A stretch of 64,000 bases of DNA from a virus (Duplodnaviria > Heunggongvirae > Uroviricota > Caudoviricetes). Below the pieces are notes generated by a model. The model did not search any database and had not been told where the DNA came from. It was given only the letters and a program-made list of their open reading frames with translations. Location of the stretch: positions 102,321-166,320 of the IMG/VR virus record IMGVR_UViG_3300028797_000098, one strand, 5' to 3'. Every line of letters begins with the position of its first letter. The first letter of the stretch is position 1. Shown here in pieces: positions 7,650 through 37,717 of this stretch. The position numbers and the translations under genes are program-made.

Positions 7650-8127
7650 ATGGTATCGGAACAAGATATAAGAAAGAGTCTTAATATTTCCAGTGAATAT
7701 GAGGTGGAACTGGATGACGATGTCAAGTTCAATGAAATTCGCGGCGGTGTATCATTCAAGTGCAAACATTGTCAGGCCGCATTCATGGCCGGATGTCGGC
7801 CTCGTGCCCGGTATCCTGGTCATTGCTGCGATTGTCCTGTGGTCCCCGGTGCCCCTGAGGCCAGTATTCTTCAAGGACGAGACATGGGCGGAATGCTATC
7901 TCACGCTGATGAAGGGACTTGGCGTAGCCGCCTTAATCTGCATTCTCCTGGTACTCTACATAATCTGGGTGGGCCTCCCCATCATGGCGGGAATGACATA
8001 CTGTTCATTGACGGCTCAAGAACCGGCGAAGTGGGGGATTATCGGTACAGGCATTGCCAACGGTGTCTGGGGGCCAGGCGCCCACTACCTGTTCACCAAG
8101 GCGCTCGACAAGGTGTTCCCCGATTAG
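7650..8127 (+). pseudogene. out-of-frame chimera: 5' copy of the 9170 gene fused to a 3' paralog of the 6313 membrane gene
   Basis: 7650-7792 matches 9170-9312 (MVSEQD.RKSL.ISS.Y.VELDDDVKFNEIR...AFMAG); 7793-8127, in another frame, aligns with the 6313 protein. Confidence 0.75.
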
Positions 8128-8132
8128 CCAGG

Positions 8133-8161
8133 TTGCCATGCGTGTCCCTTAATGCTACATT
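8133..8161 (+). promoter_or_regulatory. sigma70-like promoter TTGCCA-N17-TACATT
   Basis: Exact consensus. Confidence 0.85.
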
Positions 8162-8181
8162 TGGGGAAAAGAGGACACGAT

Positions 8182-8466
8182 ATGCTACTAGAATACAAGG
8201 TTGCGCCGCATTACGGCGACATCTGCGAACTGAACCCCGACTGCCATATCAACGGGGAGCCGTTGGATTACAACGACTTCGTGCGCAAGTACGACCACGA
8301 CAAGGCCCATGCACAGGAATTCGGCTGTCGCGACATGCGCTGCGACATCAAGCAACCGAGCGGAGACGTGCTGAACAAGTATTGCATTACAGCCGAGGAG
8401 TACCAGACGATTGCCTTCGAGATTTCGGAGGCGTTGAAATTCGGTGCATGCCGGGAATGCGTGTAA
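8182..8466 (+). CDS. hypothetical Cys-containing phage protein
   Basis: GAGG upstream; follows promoter. Confidence 0.7.
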   Translation: MLLEYKVAPHYGDICELNPDCHINGEPLDYNDFVRKYDHDKAHAQEFGCRDMRCDIKQPSGDVLNKYCITAEEYQTIAFEISEALKFGACRECV

Positions 8467-8471
8467 GTTTC

Positions 8472-8500
8472 TTGCCGGTGTAAGAAATTTTTGCTACATT
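8472..8500 (+). promoter_or_regulatory. sigma70-like promoter TTGCCG-N17-TACATT
   Basis: Consensus match. Confidence 0.8.
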
Positions 8501-8530
8501 TACAAGGTAAACAATTAACCACATGAGGAT

Positions 8531-9160
8531 ATGATGCAAGGTGGAAAACTGGCCGGGGGCAACCCGGAAAACGGTCGTGTCGATAACGACTTCTACGCGA
8601 CCGACCCTGCAGCGGTGGAGCAGCTTTTCAAGGCTCTCTGCATGTACGACAATGAGTTCACTGATTTCTCCCCGTGGTCCTTCATGGAACCGTGCGTGGG
8701 CAACGGCAACATCGCCAGGGCCACGCTGGACTACTTCAACTTCTCCCTCCACCGTCCGGAATCGGTGAATACATTCGTAGACATCGTGGACCGCGGGTAC
8801 CCGGAGACCATCGTGCAGGACTTCATGACGTTCAAGCCGGAACGGAAGTACCAGCTCATCGTCACCAATCCCCCGTATTCCATCGCACTCGACTTCGTGA
8901 AGAAGTGTCTGGAACATCTTGAACACCGGGGCTACCTGGCCATGTTCCTGAAAATCCAGTTCTGGGAAGGCGAGAAGCGCAAGCAGTTCCTCCTGGACAA
9001 CCCGCCGGCATTCTGCTTCCCCTTCTCCAAGCGTATGCCCACATGGAACAACGGGCAGCAGTGGGACGAGAACGGCAAGCGCTGGGCGACCACCATGTGC
9101 CACGCATGGTTCGTGTGGAAGAAGGACTACTGTGACCTTTGCAGGACAGTTCCAATCTAG
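8531..9160 (+). CDS. DNA N6-adenine (amino) methyltransferase
   Basis: DNDFYATDP, SAM-binding motif I MEPCVGNGNI and catalytic motif IV TNPPY. Confidence 0.85.
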   Translation: MMQGGKLAGGNPENGRVDNDFYATDPAAVEQLFKALCMYDNEFTDFSPWSFMEPCVGNGNIARATLDYFNFSLHRPESVNTFVDIVDRGYPETIVQDFMTFKPERKYQLIVTNPPYSIALDFVKKCLEHLEHRGYLAMFLKIQFWEGEKRKQFLLDNPPAFCFPFSKRMPTWNNGQQWDENGKRWATTMCHAWFVWKKDYCDLCRTVPI

Positions 9161-9169
9161 GAGTGTAAT

Positions 9170-9484
9170 ATGGTATCGGAACAAGATGTAAGGAAGAGTC
9201 TCGACATTTCCAGTGACTACGACGTGGAACTGGACGATGATGTCAAGTTCAACGAGATCCGCTACGGCGTAGAGTTCAAGTGCTTGCACTGCCAGGCCGC
9301 CTTCATGGCCGGTTATGACCAGATGTGGGTCTACAAATGCACCCCCATGCGCGGGAGGGCCCGATGGTACAACCCGGAACGTAAGGCCAGCTTCATTTTG
9401 GCAACGGAGTGCCCGTCCTGCAAGAAGCACATTGCAGCATGGGCCGAAGACTCCGACACTTACATGTACCTGGGGCGTAAATAA
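9170..9484 (+). CDS. hypothetical protein with two CxxC motifs
   Basis: CLHC...CPSC; AGGAG upstream. Confidence 0.7.
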   Translation: MVSEQDVRKSLDISSDYDVELDDDVKFNEIRYGVEFKCLHCQAAFMAGYDQMWVYKCTPMRGRARWYNPERKASFILATECPSCKKHIAAWAEDSDTYMYLGRK

Positions 9485-32803: not shown

Positions 32804-32839
32804 ATATCATATAAGCTGCAATAAATTTCACTTTTCTGG

Positions 32840-32868
32840 TTGCCAAAAGCAAAAACATTTGCTACATT
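32840..32868 (+). promoter_or_regulatory. sigma70-like promoter heading the RNA island
   Basis: TTGCCA-N17-TACATT followed by non-coding structured sequence. Confidence 0.85.
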
Positions 32869-32873
32869 TGGAA

Positions 32874-33284
32874 CAGCCGGGAAGAGCGGCGATTTGGCCG
32901 AGAGCCATATCAGAAGATTGACATGTCGGAAGCGTTTAAATAGTGCAGCGGTAGCACGGGTTCTTTATTCACCGTTTGTTTCCCGTGCTACCGAAAAGTT
33001 TAAAGGTGGCCGCCTGCAGCGGCATCGTAGTTCCTCGTCGTACCAAAAACATGGCATGGTCTCAATAGTAAAGAGTTTAAGGGTCACTTGTGGCCGTCGA
33101 ACTCTCCCCATGTACTGGGCGTGCAAACTGTGCGCCGACGTAACGACCTAAGCCCCTCGGCTGGGGGCGTTGTTCCTGGACTGACCGTAGTACGTTGGGA
33201 AGGGAGCGATCGTAGCAGTAGGAAGAGTCAGCCCCCCTCTGGGAGATCTTGCCGTCAAAGGCGCCGTGAGGCAAAGGGGCACAT
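32874..33284 (+). ncRNA. candidate ~410-nt structured ncRNA, family unknown
   Basis: Starts at the predicted TSS; contiguous hairpins including a 12-bp stem CGGTAGCACGGG/CCCGTGCTACCG (32949-32993). Confidence 0.55.
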
Positions 33285-33358
33285 CGGAGTTTAGCTCAGT
33301 CTGGTAGAGCATCTGCTTTGGGAGCAGAGGGTCGCTGGTTCGAATCCAGTTACTCCGA
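33285..33358 (+). tRNA. tRNA-Pro(UGG)
   Basis: Cloverleaf, TCTGC-TTTGGGA-GCAGA anticodon arm, GGTTCGAATCC; no encoded CCA. Confidence 0.95.
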
Positions 33359-33359
33359 C

Positions 33360-33676
33360 GAAATTAAACAAGAAGAGCGGTTTGAAATCGACCTTTGGTG
33401 CTCGCCCGGTATCGTGTGGCTGCAGCGCATGCCGGATAAAAAGGTTAAATGTGTCGAACAATTTGGAACAGTCTGGATGAACAATTAAGTGGTCCACATG
33501 CCTTTGTTTGAGGTCTTCAGTAATGAAGGCACTCCCGTTAGGGAGGGTGGCATGTGAGGGGTAGCGAATCGGGATTCCCCTTGTTCCGTTGAATGTCGCC
33601 AATTGGATGATTGCGTTGCTTGGATACTCATTCGATTGGTTTCTTGGGACGATAAGCAACTAGTCCCATGCTCTCT
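33360..33676 (+). ncRNA. candidate structured RNA segment
   Basis: CACATGCC/GGCATGTG multiloop (33495-33556) plus other hairpins; no credible ORF. Confidence 0.4.
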
Positions 33677-34036
33677 GGGGGTGCTTTGGTTTCGACTGGG
33701 CATCTGACCATGGAGGCCTCGCCCGAAGTTAGTCTGTGGCTTCGTAAAAACGGACTGAAAGAATAAATGCTAACAATGCATACGCCTGCCGCATGGCTGC
33801 CTAATCGGTAGTTATGCTGCTGCCTGGGACAAGCGAGAGGAATAAATCCCGGGACCAAGTGCATATCTCTCGAATCTAGGCCGGAGTTATGGATTTGCAT
33901 GGCCTACCTTACTTTAATCCAGAACCCTCACTGGTTAGATCACCTTGGGCAACAGGTCAGGGCCCGAAACGATTGATGGCGATATGGTTGAATTGGAAGG
34001 AAGTTTAGGACAGGGGTTCGAACCCCCTCACCTCCA
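33677..34036 (+). ncRNA. ssrA: tmRNA, tag ANNAYACRMAA* (33769-33804)
   Basis: GGGGGTG/CACCTCC acceptor with G3-U70, GGTTTCGAC, T-arm GGGGTTCGAACCCC, resume codon GCT after ATAAAT. Confidence 0.95.
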
Positions 34037-34043
34037 CGAATAG

Positions 34044-34133
34044 ATATGTGCTCGTAGGCCCAATAGGCTGACGGACACCCGGGAAGGTCCGTTGGAATTG
34101 ATCTGACTAGGGGCCGGGGAAACGGGCACATAT
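34044..34133 (+). ncRNA. candidate ~90-nt rod-shaped RNA
   Basis: 12-bp closing stem ATATGTGCTCGT/ACGGGCACATAT with nested GGCCC/GGGCC and ACGG..ACC/GGT.CCGT. Confidence 0.5.
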
Positions 34134-34145
34134 TGTTGAATTTAT

Positions 34146-35097
34146 GTCCTCCTGCCGGTAGGACCGCCCTTCAGCACGGGGTAGATTGCATATACGGTTA
34201 CGAGTGTTGCCGATGTTGCATGAAGGCAGTGGACCAAAGTATGACCTGAGGACCCATCTTGGTGGATGGGCGTGGCAAGATGCTTCGTAACAGATTCACA
34301 GGGTCAGAGGCTTCCCCTGACAAGGGGTTCTCGTCTAGCATCGGCTAAGGTAGACGAGCTCGTAAAATCGAGAGCACCCGGATTACTTAATTGTGGCTCA
34401 GGGTGTGCCGAGAGTTTCATTCTCCTGGTCCCTTCGTGGATACGGGTTGCACTGTGGACTGCGTACCAGTCACAGCAGCGTAAAGCGGTAGGCCGGCGCT
34501 ATAACCGGCAGTGTGTTTGAAAAACGCGGTCGTCTAAACGAGCAGGCGTTAATAGCGTCTGTGCTTAGGACCCCGGCGCCATCGTGGCCACGAATGTATC
34601 AAATAACGGATGTGGCAAACAGCGCGGGTGATATAGGTTCCGTCCCTATCCGCAACGCTTATGGAACGCCTTATTATTAAGTACGGTGTAAGGCCGGGCG
34701 GTCCTCCTCCCCGAGAAATCGCGGAGAATGGGACAGCCAAAGTAGGAAATTTTAAGATTCCGGGATGTTCTATAAAACGTCATCGGTGAAGATTGTTAGG
34801 GCACATCGTCTGGTTGAGGGTGAAAGCCTGTGGAGACCCACGCCTAACCGCACCGGTGACATCGAATTTAATATCCGCAGAACCAAACGCAGACTCCGGG
34901 TCTCGAGAAACTGGATATGTGTGGCCTACCGGCTAAGGTAGCGGAAAATAGTCGCTTGCTTACTATTGTACCTTGGACCCACCATGTACATGCGTACCGT
35001 GGCACAAGGCGCCTCTGGAAGCGAAAAATGCGAGAACGGCAAGCGGCAAGGGGTGGTTCTTCCCTGGTTTAGATCATGAACCACCCCGGCGCTTTTA
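34146..35097 (+). ncRNA. candidate ~950-nt large structured ncRNA (or array of RNAs), family unknown
   Basis: More than 20 near-contiguous hairpins and multiloops, no plausible ORF, ends in the 10-bp stem GGGGTGGTTC/GAACCACCCC followed by a short T run. Confidence 0.6.
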
Positions 35098-35098
35098 T

Positions 35099-35171
35099 TG
35101 ATACATAGCTCAGTTGGTAGAGCCCGCGACTGTTAATCGCGTTGTCCCTGGTTCGAGTCCAGGTGTATCAG
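35099..35171 (+). tRNA. tRNA-Asn(GUU)
   Basis: TGATACA/TGTATCA acceptor, CGCGA-CTGTTAA-TCGCG. Confidence 0.95.
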
Positions 35172-35181
35172 CTAAACCATC

Positions 35182-35335
35182 ACGTACCCGATGTCTGCCT
35201 ACTCGGAGTAGGAAGCATGTAGGGCCATTTGAATGCACCGGTATGCAGAGTAACGCCCTTGATGGTAAGGGTTCCGCTTCACCGGCTATATCCGCTCGAC
35301 TCGGATCATCTAGGTGACCGCAGATAAGGGTACGT
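35182..35335 (+). ncRNA. candidate ~155-nt closed RNA
   Basis: ACGTACCC/GGGTACGT plus TGTCTGC/GCAGATA closing stems enclosing hairpins. Confidence 0.5.
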
Positions 35336-35340
35336 CTTTT

Positions 35341-35413
35341 TCCGGAGTAGCTCAGTTGGTAGAGCAGTTGCCTTGTAAGCATCAGGTCGGGAGTTCGAGC
35401 CTCTCCTCCGGAG
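35341..35413 (+). tRNA. tRNA-Thr(UGU)
   Basis: TCCGGAG/CTCCGGA acceptor, loop CTTGTAA, GTTCGAG T-loop. Confidence 0.9.
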
Positions 35414-35443
35414 CTAGAATATAAACGCTGTTGAGTTTTTAGT

Positions 35444-35519
35444 TGCGGGTGAGTGGAACGTATATACCATTCGAGCCTCATAAGCTCCGAGATACTGGGT
35501 CAGACTCCCAGACCCGCTA
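35444..35519 (+). tRNA. atypical tRNA-Met(CAU), initiator-like
   Basis: GCGGGT/ACCCGC acceptor with 1:72 mismatch, loop CTCATAA, T-arm CTGGG-TCAGACT-CCCAG. Confidence 0.7.
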
Positions 35520-35572
35520 CTAAGAATTTGTACGTGTTAAAAGCAAAAACAATGTGTATATTCGGTCGATTT

Positions 35573-35779
35573 AAGTTCGATGTGTAACTTAATGACACCG
35601 TTCTAAACCGGGCACCATCGAAACTTTTTTGAGATAGAATAAGGTCTAAGCCGAAAGTCGCGGGTCTTTAGTTCCAAATGACTAGAACACCGACCGGGGC
35701 AACCCTCGTTGGAGGCTCTGGGTTAAAGTCCCAGTTGATCCGAATAGCGGCGCAAGCTGTCGAACGAGTAGGCTAGGTC
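35573..35779 (+). ncRNA. candidate multibranched RNA
   Basis: AGTTCGATG/CATCGAAACT hairpin and CTAAGCC/GGCTAGG multiloop with a GCAA-capped helix. Confidence 0.4.
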
Positions 35780-35855
35780 ACAGTGAGAAAGGACTGTCTT
35801 GAATTTGAAATTGTCGCAGTGCACGGCGACATACTGGACGCATGGAAGAAAAACA

Positions 35856-35937
35856 GGCTGCGTGGTGTAGTTGGAAGAACATACCCGCCTCGGGCAACTG
35901 ACGCGAGAGACGCTAGGTTCGAAACCTGCTGTAGCAC
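35856..35937 (+). ncRNA. tRNA-like RNA lacking an anticodon loop
   Basis: Acceptor GCTGCG/TGTAGC, D-arm GTGT-AGTTGGAAGA-ACAT, T-arm AGG-TTCGAAA-CCT, central arm CGC-C-TCGG-GCAA-CTGA-C-GCG. Confidence 0.55.
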
Positions 35938-36029
35938 ATTGGCCGGGTTACCGGTTGAAGGAGTATTCCGTGCGGGTGGCAACAAAGAGCCACACATGCA
36001 GCCCTCTGGCCAGGTAGGGAAATTTAAAC

Positions 36030-36103
36030 GGACCGGTAGCTCAGTTGGTCAGAGCGGCGGACTCATAACCCGTTGGTCCCTGGTTCAAGTCCAGGCCGGT
36101 CCA
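36030..36103 (+). tRNA. tRNA(CAU), probably Ile2 (lysidine type)
   Basis: GGACCGG/CCGGTCC-A acceptor resembles bacterial Ile2; loop CTCATAA. Confidence 0.85.
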
Positions 36104-36163
36104 CTTTTGCCCAACGGGCGCCCGCTGAACCATGGATAACATCTGGCGCATCCGGTAAGCAGA

Positions 36164-36250
36164 CGGCGCATAGGTATCGTCTAATTTCCATAGGACGCCT
36201 CCCTGTATTCGGGGGAAACCCGGTGTTGGAATCCGGAAACCGTGCGCCGA
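36164..36250 (+). ncRNA. degenerate tRNA-like RNA (8-nt anticodon loop, extended acceptor)
   Basis: CGGCGCA/TGCGCCG + GGT/ACC, D-like TCGTCTAA..TAGGACG, CCTCC-CTGTATTC-GGGGG, CCGG-TGTTGGAAT-CCGG. Confidence 0.5.
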
Positions 36251-36270
36251 TCACTTTTAATGGAGGAAAA

Positions 36271-36516
36271 ATGGCTGACAAAAACGAATTCCACAATGAC
36301 TTGGAAGTCTATTGCTCCGCTAAGGAACACAAGGGAATGGTCCTTGACCTTATAAGGGTGTACGGACCGACAGCCACGCTGAAGGATGTCCTTGCCAGCA
36401 TTAACTATCAGATGGACAAGTACGAGAACCTTTTGTTCATGCACAACCTGTTAGAGACCAAGAGTGTTGCGGGTGCCGTGCTGTCGTCCCTTAGCGATTT
36501 GAAGGAAACTGAATGA
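36271..36516 (+). CDS. hypothetical protein within the RNA island
   Basis: GGAGG upstream. Confidence 0.7.
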   Translation: MADKNEFHNDLEVYCSAKEHKGMVLDLIRVYGPTATLKDVLASINYQMDKYENLLFMHNLLETKSVAGAVLSSLSDLKETE

Positions 36517-36531
36517 ATGAATGACTAACAA

Positions 36532-36630
36532 ATGCGCATAGTGTAGCTTCCGTTGATCACGGGAGTCTCCTGCCCTGTCGATTCCGGGTCGGCCAAAGTC
36601 AGGCAATGAAGGTGGATGCCTGGTGCGCAT
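36532..36630 (+). ncRNA. candidate ~100-nt closed RNA
   Basis: ATGCGCA/TGCGCAT closing stem; inner TTCCG-TTGATCA-CGGGA hairpin. Confidence 0.4.
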
Positions 36631-36641
36631 GTTTTTAACGA

Positions 36642-36717
36642 GTCCGTGTCGTCAAGTTGGAATGGCCCCTCTCTCCTAAAGAGGTGTTTTACACAGGTTC
36701 GAGCCCTGTCACGGATA
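36642..36717 (+). tRNA. tRNA-Arg(CCU)
   Basis: GTCCGTG/CACGGAT acceptor, CCTCT-CTCCTAA-AGAGG, ACAGG-TTCGAGC-CCTGT. Confidence 0.9.
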
Positions 36718-36739
36718 CTAATATCGAATGGAGAACAAC

Positions 36740-36916
36740 ATGAAAGAGAAGAAGAAAGAATTTGTTGAGGAGACCCAGGAGCAGAAGGATGCTCGCTGGA
36801 AGAAACAGGCCAAGGCGGCAAAGAGTTTCGCGGTGTCTAGCGGCATTGACTTGAAGAAGGTAGCTCGCGAACGCCGCAATAACGAATGGGCCAAGAATAA
36901 GGATAATTGGTACTAA
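36740..36916 (+). CDS. small basic hypothetical protein
   Basis: GGAG upstream; K/E/R-rich. Confidence 0.55.
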   Translation: MKEKKKEFVEETQEQKDARWKKQAKAAKSFAVSSGIDLKKVARERRNNEWAKNKDNWY

Positions 36917-36962
36917 TAAGCTTGACGCTTCCGACAAGAGCTTTGCGTTCAATGTCCAGCAA

Positions 36963-36992
36963 GGCGTCCCGTTGCCACGGGGCGCCTTTTTT
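36963..36992 (+). terminator. intrinsic terminator closing the RNA island
   Basis: GGCGTCCCG-TTGCCA-CGGGGCGCC-TTTTTT. Confidence 0.8.
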
Positions 36993-37000
36993 GCTATATT
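36972..37000 (+). promoter_or_regulatory. sigma70-like promoter TTGCCA-N17-TATATT
   Basis: -35 is the loop of the terminator hairpin; ATG 6 nt downstream. Confidence 0.8.
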
Positions 37001-37006
37001 CCCAAC

Positions 37007-37717
37007 ATGAAATATGACATGTTTGACAGAGAATCCGTAAAGAGAGTGCTTGATACGTTTGAAGCACATAGCCTGTTCATCAACAAAAAGTACGAGGCGT
37101 TTAAATCCAAGAATAACTACTGGTCATCCGACCGCGAACGATTCGTTGGACGGTTCTTCAAAAAGTATCGGGGCAAGTTCTTTATCCTGATTGACAAGGA
37201 AGTCATTGGATATCACGATGAAGTCAATGATACTGCATTTTTCAGCAGTGTTGACCCTGTATCCATCTATTCACGCAAGTATAGTGAACATTCCTACCAT
37301 TATAGGGGCGAGCGTATTACCCGAACGGTCAAGAAGTTCCTGTGCGTATCTTATATCAGTGCTGTCAATACTAGTGTCAGTTCCGGATATATTGAAATGT
37401 CTTGCTATGACCTGTTTGGTGACAAGGTTAACTACGTGCTCGACCTGCATATGCTGGCAAATATGCAGTTCAAAGAAATTACCGAGGAAGAGTTTAACCA
37501 GATGGCTAGACTGTTCCAGGATGACCGCGATGACCGTGAATTCAAGGTAACCCGTTACCTTGATGCCGATGAACTGAAGTCCAGGAAGCGCAGCGAAAGG
37601 AAGAACCTTATCAAGGTAGGCAGGTATCTCACCAAGGAAATCGTTACGGTCATGGCGAAGGATTCTGATGACGCTATGAAGAAATGTACCAATGCAATCG
37701 AGGTATCGTCATGTTAA
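37007..37717 (+). CDS. hypothetical protein (leaderless candidate)
   Basis: ATG 6 nt after the -10 box. Confidence 0.75.
   Translation: MKYDMFDRESVKRVLDTFEAHSLFINKKYEAFKSKNNYWSSDRERFVGRFFKKYRGKFFILIDKEVIGYHDEVNDTAFFSSVDPVSIYSRKYSEHSYHYRGERITRTVKKFLCVSYISAVNTSVSSGYIEMSCYDLFGDKVNYVLDLHMLANMQFKEITEEEFNQMARLFQDDRDDREFKVTRYLDADELKSRKRSERKNLIKVGRYLTKEIVTVMAKDSDDAMKKCTNAIEVSSC

Follow-up and report, generated by a model that had tools for sequence, protein, structure and literature searches.

A candidate RNA operon in a large uncultured phage

What does a phage keep in 4.1 kb of DNA that is nearly free of protein-coding genes? The question is raised by a 64-kb stretch of phage DNA (the window; positions 102321-166320 of a 203-kb IMG/VR virus record), in which the region at 32840-36990, here called the island, carries transfer RNA (tRNA) genes and a transfer-messenger RNA (tmRNA) gene set apart by long spacers. 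Comparison with related phages suggests, with a probability of roughly 0.65, that the island is a conserved operon made up mostly of RNA genes, new RNA classes among them, in a clade of large uncultured phages. An earlier note, made from the letters of the window alone, had proposed a polycistronic operon of non-coding RNAs (ncRNAs); the single-promoter, single-terminator layout and the conserved, structured spacers agree with that proposal, although some spacer parts look like decay or recent insertion. The frame of the island and its predicted non-coding units are as follows.

32840-36990, plus strand: the island, with five tRNAs, a tmRNA and two small open reading frames (ORFs) between one promoter and one terminator
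32810-32868, plus strand: promoter region, a 20-nt upstream element and TTGCCA (32840)-N17-TACATT (ending at 32868), with TG
32875-33284, plus strand: S1, structured RNA of ~410 nt, from the predicted start site to tRNA-Pro
33360-33676, plus strand: S2, 317-nt structured spacer between tRNA-Pro and the tmRNA
34146-34235, plus strand: S3-A, closed three-way junction of ~90 nt, from covariation
34424-34660, plus strand: S3-B, from covariation
34780-35098, plus strand: S3-C, with its 3' end flush with tRNA-Asn
35626-35798, plus strand: E, ultraconserved RNA of ~170 nt, 95-97% identical in all 15 related loci
35801-36029, plus strand: S5b, 230-nt RNA, 95-99% identical in nine loci
36105-36270, plus strand: S6, 166-nt structured RNA with a cloverleaf-like core at ~36164-36250
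36531-36635, plus strand: H module, 105-nt structured RNA, directly before tRNA-Arg in the window
36961-36988, plus strand: intrinsic terminator with a 12-bp stem and a downstream T-run (consensus scan)

The source is a very large uncultured phage of which the record is one part: at 203 kb the record is only ~52% complete (CheckV), and is therefore a fragment of a very large phage. Few proteins of the genome match phage families. BLAST searches of 50,697 phage records with the island, in near and distant modes, returned the tRNAs as sole matches and no close relative, and scanning viral contigs with each of the two proteins encoded downstream of the island returned nothing. Relatives were reached by a protein homology search with contig look-up, followed by searches with exact strings that are invariant between the window and one relative, L004. 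The protein encoded downstream of the island (37007-37717) has 34 homologs in public assemblies, with identities of 97-42%; the homolog in L004 is just 55% identical, yet a homologous island lies in the DNA upstream of it. The invariant strings then led to a 224-kb IMG/VR relative (genome G001, locus L023) and to 12 metagenome loci (L024-L035).

Conservation of the spacers, on which the earlier note had made its proposal depend, was borne out, since homologous islands are present in 15 related metagenomic phage loci. Their common order is promoter, S1, tRNA-Pro, S2, tmRNA, S3, (Asn), Thr, Met1, E, (S5b), Met2, ..., Arg; in L033 the tRNA-Asn and tRNA-Thr genes are absent. A conserved anchor string from E matched none of 185,579 species genomes, and hence gave no clue to the host.

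The layout is that of a polycistronic RNA operon, with tRNAs and conserved RNAs interleaved on one strand between one promoter and one terminator. The bracketing by a promoter at 32840 and a single terminator had already been described, and both a consensus scan and a scan for the promoter class of this phage agree with it: there is no copy of the class within 32869-36971, and the next one lies at 36972. The contrast with the coding remainder of the window was likewise confirmed, with 92% of the window lying under ORFs of >=90 amino acids and the longest stretch free of these (1209 nt) falling within the island. As the earlier note had counted, only two small ORFs, at 36271-36516 and 36740-36916, are found in the 4.1 kb; they are the only credible ones, each with a ribosome-binding site and each a called gene in relatives. 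Reassigning any single stop codon opened no long ORF in the island, where stop-codon usage is non-coding in appearance. G+C content is 52% in the ORF-free stretch, against 48% in the rest of the window. Elsewhere in the same genome, outside the window (G000:C1:44241-47779), an array packs 33 tRNAs into 3.5 kb with spacers of mostly a few to a dozen bases, the longest being 385; the long spacers of the island are therefore not the default of this phage.

Signs of selection on RNA structure in the spacers

Mean pairwise identity between loci is 90% for S1, 84% for S2, 82%, 84% and 77% for S3-A, S3-B and S3-C, 91% for E with its flanks (core 95-97%), 93% for S5b and 90% for S6. For reference, the value is 75% for tRNA-Pro, 80% for tRNA-Thr, 71% for tRNA-Arg, 90% for the tmRNA and 73% for the DNA of the downstream gene. 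With spacers at 77-93%, tRNAs at 71-80%, the tmRNA at 90% and the gene at 73%, constraint on the spacers is equal to or greater than that on known RNA genes. Spacer insertions and deletions are multiples of three in only 0-17% of cases, S3 displays little codon-position bias, with the neighbouring control gene giving the expected third-position excess, and ORFs within S3 homologs are consistent in neither position nor strand. These patterns indicate that the spacers are non-coding, and the comparisons as a whole point to at least eight non-coding units among those listed (S1, S2, S3-A, S3-B, S3-C, E, S5b, S6 and H).

Covariation was measured against two controls, namely column shuffles and the sliding of 3' partners by 1-3 columns, the latter keeping the relatedness of the sequences. 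Canonical pairs fill 94-98% of cells in S3-A, S3-B, S3-C, S1 and S6, and 30-50% after the partners are slid; column-shuffle z values for the S1, S3 and S6 units range from -4 to -9.6. The covariation that the earlier note had called for is thus present in these units, as compensatory changes well above both controls. The plus-strand consensus fold is more stable than that of the minus strand in 6/6 units tested, and conserved G-U pairs are common (UG in 8/8 sequences at one S3-A pair, for example), which together point to RNA made from the strand that carries the tRNAs and not to DNA hairpins. Domains of variable length are located at hairpin tips, a trait typical of large structured RNAs. We infer that the units are maintained by selection as plus-strand RNA structures.

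The S3 modules form the largest set. In nine loci, S3 fills the 0.9-1.4 kb that separate the tmRNA from a tRNA; in L033, it takes up 1.65 kb. S3-A comprises 29-30 pairs, 11-12 of them compensatory (z -6.6; the observed count was reached by 0/100 shuffles), S3-B 122 pairs with 16 compensatory (z -9.1, 0/100), and S3-C 69-89 pairs with 10-12 compensatory (z -9.6, 1/100). At one hairpin tip of S3-B, most relatives carry an extra 146-nt domain that is absent from the window and from L033.

S1, which would begin at a transcription start near 32875, is nearly invariant over its 3' 280 nt, and three genomes share unchanged blocks of 42, 34, 25 and 24 nt. Its hairpin at 32949-32994 has a 12-bp stem in which three to four pairs have changed in concert, and a tip that varies from ~18 to 70 nt. 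Over 104 pairs, 98% are canonical and 8 compensatory (z -5.3), a count reached by 0/100 shuffles (shuffle maximum 5). S2 is conserved in L030, L035, L029, L033 and L004, and compensatory stems are visible in its alignment; in L023 and L025, its place is taken by a HEARO RNA.

Homologs of H, ~105 nt long, lie directly 3' of the tmRNA in most relatives. A covariance model built on seven copies (R1) found one copy per locus in 11/16 sources searched, at 80-117 bits, and none elsewhere; in the alignment, 97% of cells are paired and 7/19 pairs are compensatory, against 0-1 in slid controls. Because H stands before tRNA-Arg in the window and after the tmRNA in relatives, it appears to have changed place inside the island as a module of its own. 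Matches of a 'permuted tmRNA' model over H reach 33.7 bits, under the cut-off of 47, and are mostly owed to the 3' end of the tmRNA.

tRNA-shaped RNAs predicted not to decode

Three of the units resemble tRNAs. The predicted fold of E is made up of these parts.

35643-35652 with 35771-35779, plus strand: closing helix, from the fold
35661-35742, plus strand: tRNA-shaped core; its acceptor stem has six pairs, and the hairpin at the D-arm position seven
35690-35694 with 35708-35712, plus strand: anticodon stem of five pairs, from the fold
35718-35734, plus strand: T-arm, from the fold
35747-35760, plus strand: second GNRA hairpin, from the fold
35781-35798, plus strand: terminal hairpin with a variable loop, from the fold

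The anticodon loop of E is replaced by a 13-nt mini-hairpin capped by GCAA (35699-35702). S5b has a tRNA-shaped core at 35856-35937, the central arm of which is also capped by GCAA (35894-35897), so that in both RNAs a GCAA-capped mini-hairpin of 13-14 nt sits at the anticodon-loop position. Across 12 distinct sequences, the stems of E are 98.8% canonical, and the acceptor stem, the T-arm with its T-loop and the stem at the anticodon position have been maintained in evolution. In L032 and L033, U-A stands in place of the acceptor pair C35661-G35742, and the T-loop, UUAAAGU in the window, reads as the canonical UUCGAGC; both tetraloops have kept the GNRA form through changes (GCAA to GCGA in one, GCAA to GAAA in the other). 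S5b has 66 pairs, 98.5% of them canonical, and is absent from L004, L023 and L035. Among 10 distinct S6 sequences, 5 of 46 pairs are compensatory (z -4.0, 2/150 shuffles); the S6 stem at the anticodon position covaries and its loop sequence differs between relatives. That freedom of the loop to vary argues that S6 is non-decoding.

The general tRNA model (RF00005) scores 27.1 bits on the E core in L032 and L033 and 24.7 bits on the S5b core in L029 and L031, below its 29-bit cut-off, and has no match on any of the three cores in the window. None of the E, S5b and S6 cores combines a score of >=29 bits with a 7-nt anticodon loop. E and S5b, and more loosely S6, thus appear to be tRNA-shaped RNAs that are unable to decode. 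A 32-codon ORF within E was rejected by eye, having no ribosome-binding site and several non-synonymous changes between relatives. The 3' end of S6 carries the ribosome-binding site of the ORF that follows (ORF1).

Between Met1 and E, relatives have a further tRNA-like hairpin (for example at L030:2453-2530), in which an acceptor-like stem of seven pairs is accompanied by an arm with a UUCG cap and by CCCGG-UUCUAAA-CCGGG, which resembles a T-arm; a U-run comes next. Of this hairpin, the window retains the 3' half only (35600-35625).

Comparison with known RNAs

Against the 4227 families of Rfam 15, the island gave tRNA and tmRNA matches only, with no spacer assigned to any family at E<=10; the possibility, left open by the earlier note, that known families would account for the spacers found no support here. 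Searched alone at the same threshold, S1 returned zero matches and S3 nothing meaningful, and 11 relatives searched at E<=1 had no match to ROOL, GOLLD, OLE or RNase P RNA. On this comparison, no unit seems to belong to a described RNA family, and in the literature we found no account of the island or its units. Some of the units may be among the 10,006 unnamed candidate RNAs that a survey of IMG/VR predicted in 2023 (PMC10690425).

The phage RNAs ROOL and GOLLD commonly lie near tRNA islands, and the linkers of GOLLD can contain tRNAs (PMC12286853). S3 resembles both in being large, multi-domain and placed beside a tRNA, as these phage and prophage RNAs of unknown function are, and its conserved modules with variable inserts recall the mixture of conserved and variable regions in GOLLD. 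It differs from them in always lying 3' of a tmRNA, and neither the island nor S3 alone is matched by the covariance models of ROOL (RF03087) or GOLLD (RF01998) at E<=10. A further mark of ROOL and GOLLD is that identical copies assemble into RNA-only cages. S1 was considered as a bacterial RNase P RNA (RF00010, RF00011) and rejected, since these covariance models match neither S1 nor S3 at E<=10; a short AGGAAGAGUC near the 3' end of S1 is in the wrong location for the P4 core of RNase P.

For E, the sole hint from Rfam in the window is a weak match of the mascRNA model at 35696-35741 (18.9 bits, E=3; family cut-off 42.5). The mascRNA of MALAT1/MEN-beta (RF01684) is likewise a non-decoding, tRNA-shaped element in a longer ncRNA. 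In that eukaryotic family, an RNase P cut sets the RNA ends, whereas the tRNA-like core of E is enclosed by a closing helix and so may not be cut out. YrlA (RF02553), RNAs of which type occur in some phages, shares with E an end-to-end stem and a tRNA-like domain; the closing helix of E, however, joins the acceptor side and not the anticodon side. This topology, the missing model match and the absence of a TROVE (Ro60) gene from the 203-kb fragment (~52% of the genome) led to the rejection of a Y RNA-like identity for E. Weak matches of the YrlA model in relatives land on real tRNA pairs.

The tRNA cluster of phage T4 includes two co-transcribed stable RNAs, 'species 1' and 'species 2' (rnaC and rnaD), which are matured by the tRNA machinery. 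The island is similar in holding non-tRNA RNAs of unknown function within a phage tRNA unit; it differs in scale, with two small RNAs in T4 and here at least eight units over ~3 kb, one of them up to 1 kb, with a tmRNA included. HEARO, the IscB omega RNA (RF02033), is a structured RNA of 230-245 nt that occurs inside the islands of relatives, where, unlike the conserved units, it replaces or interrupts other units. Scores of >=83 bits for HEARO were reached only by inserted copies in relatives and nowhere in the window.

Alternative explanations

Could the spacers be evolutionary debris, that is, decayed tRNA genes, mobile-element remnants and intergenic filler without function? Parts of the island fit this description: 35415-35600 holds a decayed tRNA-Met and half a tRNA-like hairpin, 34045-34140 is unique to this genome, the presence of three elements described below (S4, V1 and V2) differs between genomes, and single-sequence folding z-scores are weak. 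The region also collects mobile DNA, as HEARO, TnpB, a DUF559 endonuclease and an intron-like insert in the islands of relatives attest. The main units behave otherwise, being conserved at least as well as the real tRNAs and the tmRNA, and better than the neighbouring gene, with numerous compensatory pair changes; the extreme conservation of E and S5b, at 95-99% identity while adjacent functional tRNAs drift to 71-80%, is the opposite of what is expected of tRNA pseudogenes. We therefore regard debris as an improbable account of the spacers. No better in our estimate is the idea that the units are divergent members of described families (ROOL or GOLLD for S3, RNase P RNA for S1, a Y RNA-like RNA for E). 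The frequent location of ROOL and GOLLD near tRNA islands, with tRNAs in GOLLD linkers (PMC12286853), would suit it, as would the length of S1, which is that of RNase P RNA, and the pairing of closing stems with a tRNA-like domain that E shares with YrlA. It is contradicted by the failure of all 4227 Rfam families to match the island, S3 or S1 at E<=10, or the 11 relatives at E<=1, and, for E, by the closing helix on the acceptor side and the lack of a TROVE (Ro60) gene in the 203-kb fragment.

Spacers that act only in cis, as folding insulators or processing scaffolds for tRNA and tmRNA maturation that are later degraded, would explain why units abut tRNA and tmRNA ends, why H always adjoins a gene of tRNA type (the tmRNA on its 5' side or tRNA-Arg on its 3' side) and why some cores are tRNA-shaped, as these could recruit RNase P. 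We consider this unlikely, although less so than the two explanations above: mostly short spacers serve the 33-tRNA array of the same genome, so long scaffolds are not needed, and a multi-domain structure of ~1 kb, together with stretches of 170-280 nt that hardly vary (E, and S1 in its 3' part), far exceeds what a spacer demands. Relatives also tolerate 245-nt HEARO insertions between units, which are therefore independent modules rather than length-tuned spacers. Least credible of all is a role of the region as DNA (a replication origin, packaging site or recombination hot spot, with the hairpins as DNA features), for which the long ORF-free stretch, its G+C of 52% against 48% and the many mobile-element insertions here in relatives could be cited. 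Consensus folds that are more stable on the plus strand in 6/6 units, frequent conserved G-U pairs that would be mismatches in DNA, and the placement of the units between promoter and terminator on the strand of the tRNAs all speak for RNA instead. Origin-type repeat arrays were not noticed on reading the region, although no dedicated repeat scan was run.

Several points weigh against the conserved operon of RNA genes that we prefer. The relatives amount to ~3-4 mosaic lineages, and therefore to a small effective sample, in which shared phylogeny can inflate shuffle statistics. Single-sequence folding energies are weak against shuffles (z -0.6 to -2.2), so that structure is not established by this sequence alone and has its support in the relatives. 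The earlier statement that nearly all of the remainder forms hairpin domains accordingly stands where relatives back the structure, and fails for single-sequence energies, for the unique segment at 34045-34140 and for the decayed one at 35415-35600; more widely, some segments (34045-34140, 35173-35340, 35415-35600, V1 and V2) are plainly decaying or insertions. E and S5b, which vary too little for covariation statistics, have 2 compensatory pairs each, a number reached by 34/200 (E) and 12/150 (S5b) shuffles, and their predicted structures draw on one or two compensatory events plus likeness to tRNA. Recent recombinational spread, and not constraint, could account in part for the 95-99% identity of E, S5b and S4. 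For S2, 23/83 pairs were compensatory in an alignment that included the unrelated HEARO locus L027, and 10/150 shuffles reached this; without L027, the count is 11/80 compensatory pairs, given without a shuffle control. S3-A, S3-B and S3-C may be one RNA of up to 1 kb, which is only a possibility, and co-transcription, processing and stability are all predictions.

Possible function of the island

If the island is an operon of RNA genes, it would be transcribed as a single precursor, in which the ends of the intervening RNAs would be set by the same enzymes as mature the tRNAs and the tmRNA, namely host RNase P and those that process tRNA 3' ends. Cuts in A/U-rich linkers could assist the release of units, and the tRNA-shaped cores might be added processing signals, or mimics that engage tRNA-binding factors. 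The freed RNAs may then act in trans during infection, on translation or tRNA surveillance. The units are always accompanied by a tmRNA and tRNAs, which makes the machinery of translation or tRNA surveillance in the host their most likely arena.

A bolder proposal, which as a whole we hold to be possible but doubtful, takes the island for a tRNA region turned into new RNAs, in which S3, and perhaps S1, would be a giant ornate class on a par with ROOL or GOLLD but tied to the tmRNA, and E and S5b would be uncleavable tRNA mimics that occupy or disarm host tRNA-directed factors such as anticodon nucleases, or dock via their GNRA loops into the larger RNAs and so form an RNA-only assembly.

Large, highly structured RNAs are rare in bacteria and phages, and each new class (OLE, GOLLD, ROOL, HEARO) has opened new biology. 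The island would hold several candidates in one conserved unit: the ~1-kb S3 set, the 410-nt leader RNA S1 and three non-decoding, tRNA-derived RNAs, two of which hardly vary while the true tRNAs next to them drift. Such a pattern suggests that phage arrays can supply tRNA genes for new roles under strong selection, linked to a phage tmRNA. The 15 loci form a ready seed alignment for model building, for mining metatranscriptomes and for the choice of constructs for structure determination.

Genes and signals of the island

The known genes and the two ORFs of the island are the following.

33285-33359, plus strand: tRNA-Pro (TGG), ARAGORN and Rfam
33677-34039, plus strand: tmRNA with tag ANNAYACRMAA, ARAGORN and Rfam (106 bits)
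35099-35172, plus strand: tRNA-Asn (GTT), ARAGORN and Rfam
35341-35414, plus strand: tRNA-Thr (TGT), ARAGORN and Rfam
36030-36104, plus strand: tRNA-Met (CAT), ARAGORN and Rfam
36271-36516, plus strand: ORF1, 81 amino acids, no family match; a gene call in L002 and L009
36642-36718, plus strand: tRNA-Arg (CCT), ARAGORN and Rfam
36740-36916, plus strand: ORF2, 58 amino acids, lysine/glutamate-rich, no family match

Both ARAGORN and Rfam call five tRNAs (Pro, Asn, Thr, Met and Arg) plus the tmRNA, one tRNA fewer than the earlier note had counted; the 'sixth' is probably either the decayed tRNA-Met (~35444-35518) or one of the three non-decoding elements of tRNA shape. Together the five tRNAs and the tmRNA take up 738 nt, within the 1 kb that the note had allowed them. 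The 203-kb fragment contains 40 tRNAs and one tmRNA in total; SmpB, the partner of tmRNA, was not found in this fragment (~52% of the genome). Across the clade, tmRNA tags differ (ANNAYACRMAA, ANDAFACRMAA, ADNAFACRMAA, ADNAFAYSAAA), and most contain cysteine and end in RMAA instead of the usual ALAA.

The promoter-like site at 32840-32868, which was picked up by the consensus scan, is conserved in L004 and G001. It belongs to a class specific to this phage, TTGCCA-N14-TGCTACATT, which has 21 copies in the window against 1.5 expected by chance, and looks like the main promoter class of the phage. Its sites are mostly on the plus strand and include 645, 6798, 8133, 11081, 14577, 25760, 26813, 31809, 32840, 36972, 42282 and 47197. 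Directly upstream of the -35 element of the island promoter, the 20-mer TATAAGCTGCAATAAATTTC (32810-32829) is the same in three divergent genomes and has no second copy in the window; it could serve the island operon in particular, as an UP element or an activator site. At the other end, the terminator region is conserved in L002, L008 and L011, and the terminator loop contains the -35 hexamer of the following promoter (36972-37000).

Decayed segments, insertions and mobile elements

Segments for which the comparisons give no support of function lie between the conserved units.

34045-34140, plus strand: hairpin domain unique to this genome, directly 3' of the tmRNA
34236-34423, plus strand: S3 insert V1, only in the window, L033 and L023
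34661-34779, plus strand: S3 insert V2, lineage-specific
35173-35340, plus strand: S4, 168-nt closed hairpin element, an insertion/deletion difference between genomes
35415-35625, plus strand: decayed segment, with a Met1 remnant (~35444-35518) and half (3' side) of a tRNA-like hairpin that is intact in relatives

The segments at 34045-34140, 35173-35340 and 35415-35600 and the variable inserts of S3 look like decay or recent insertion. The domain at 34045-34140 has no homologs in relatives or elsewhere in the genome, and L033, the closest relative, joins its tmRNA straight to S3-A without it. S4 is present in the window, L028 and L030 only (95-96% identity), with a 7-nt spacer in most relatives, and so looks like a recent insertion. 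The Met1 remnant is 74-77% identical to the Met1 region of L034, L030 and L025, and is called by neither ARAGORN nor Rfam.

Stand-alone HEARO RNAs of 117-131 bits occur in the islands of relatives, at L023:2225-2453 and at L025:3446-3673 (minus strand), with three copies within 3 kb in L034 (659-903, 2481-2725 and 3160-3404). These copies leave no room for an adjoining IscB gene, and the window has zero copies; possible readings are orphan guide RNAs and non-autonomous mini-elements. A 215-nt insert (L002:1831-2045; L026:555-769) splits Met2 precisely at the anticodon, at the equivalent of window position 36064/36065, and gives a weak match to an Rfam group I intron (31.6 bits, E=2.7e-4). L002 has an inserted gene of 278 amino acids nearby (808-1644). 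In or beside the islands of relatives (L004:5184-5489 and 8011-9333; L006; L007; L011:924-2636) are genes for a DUF559 endonuclease, TnpB and a resolvase, which mark the region as a frequent landing site for mobile elements.

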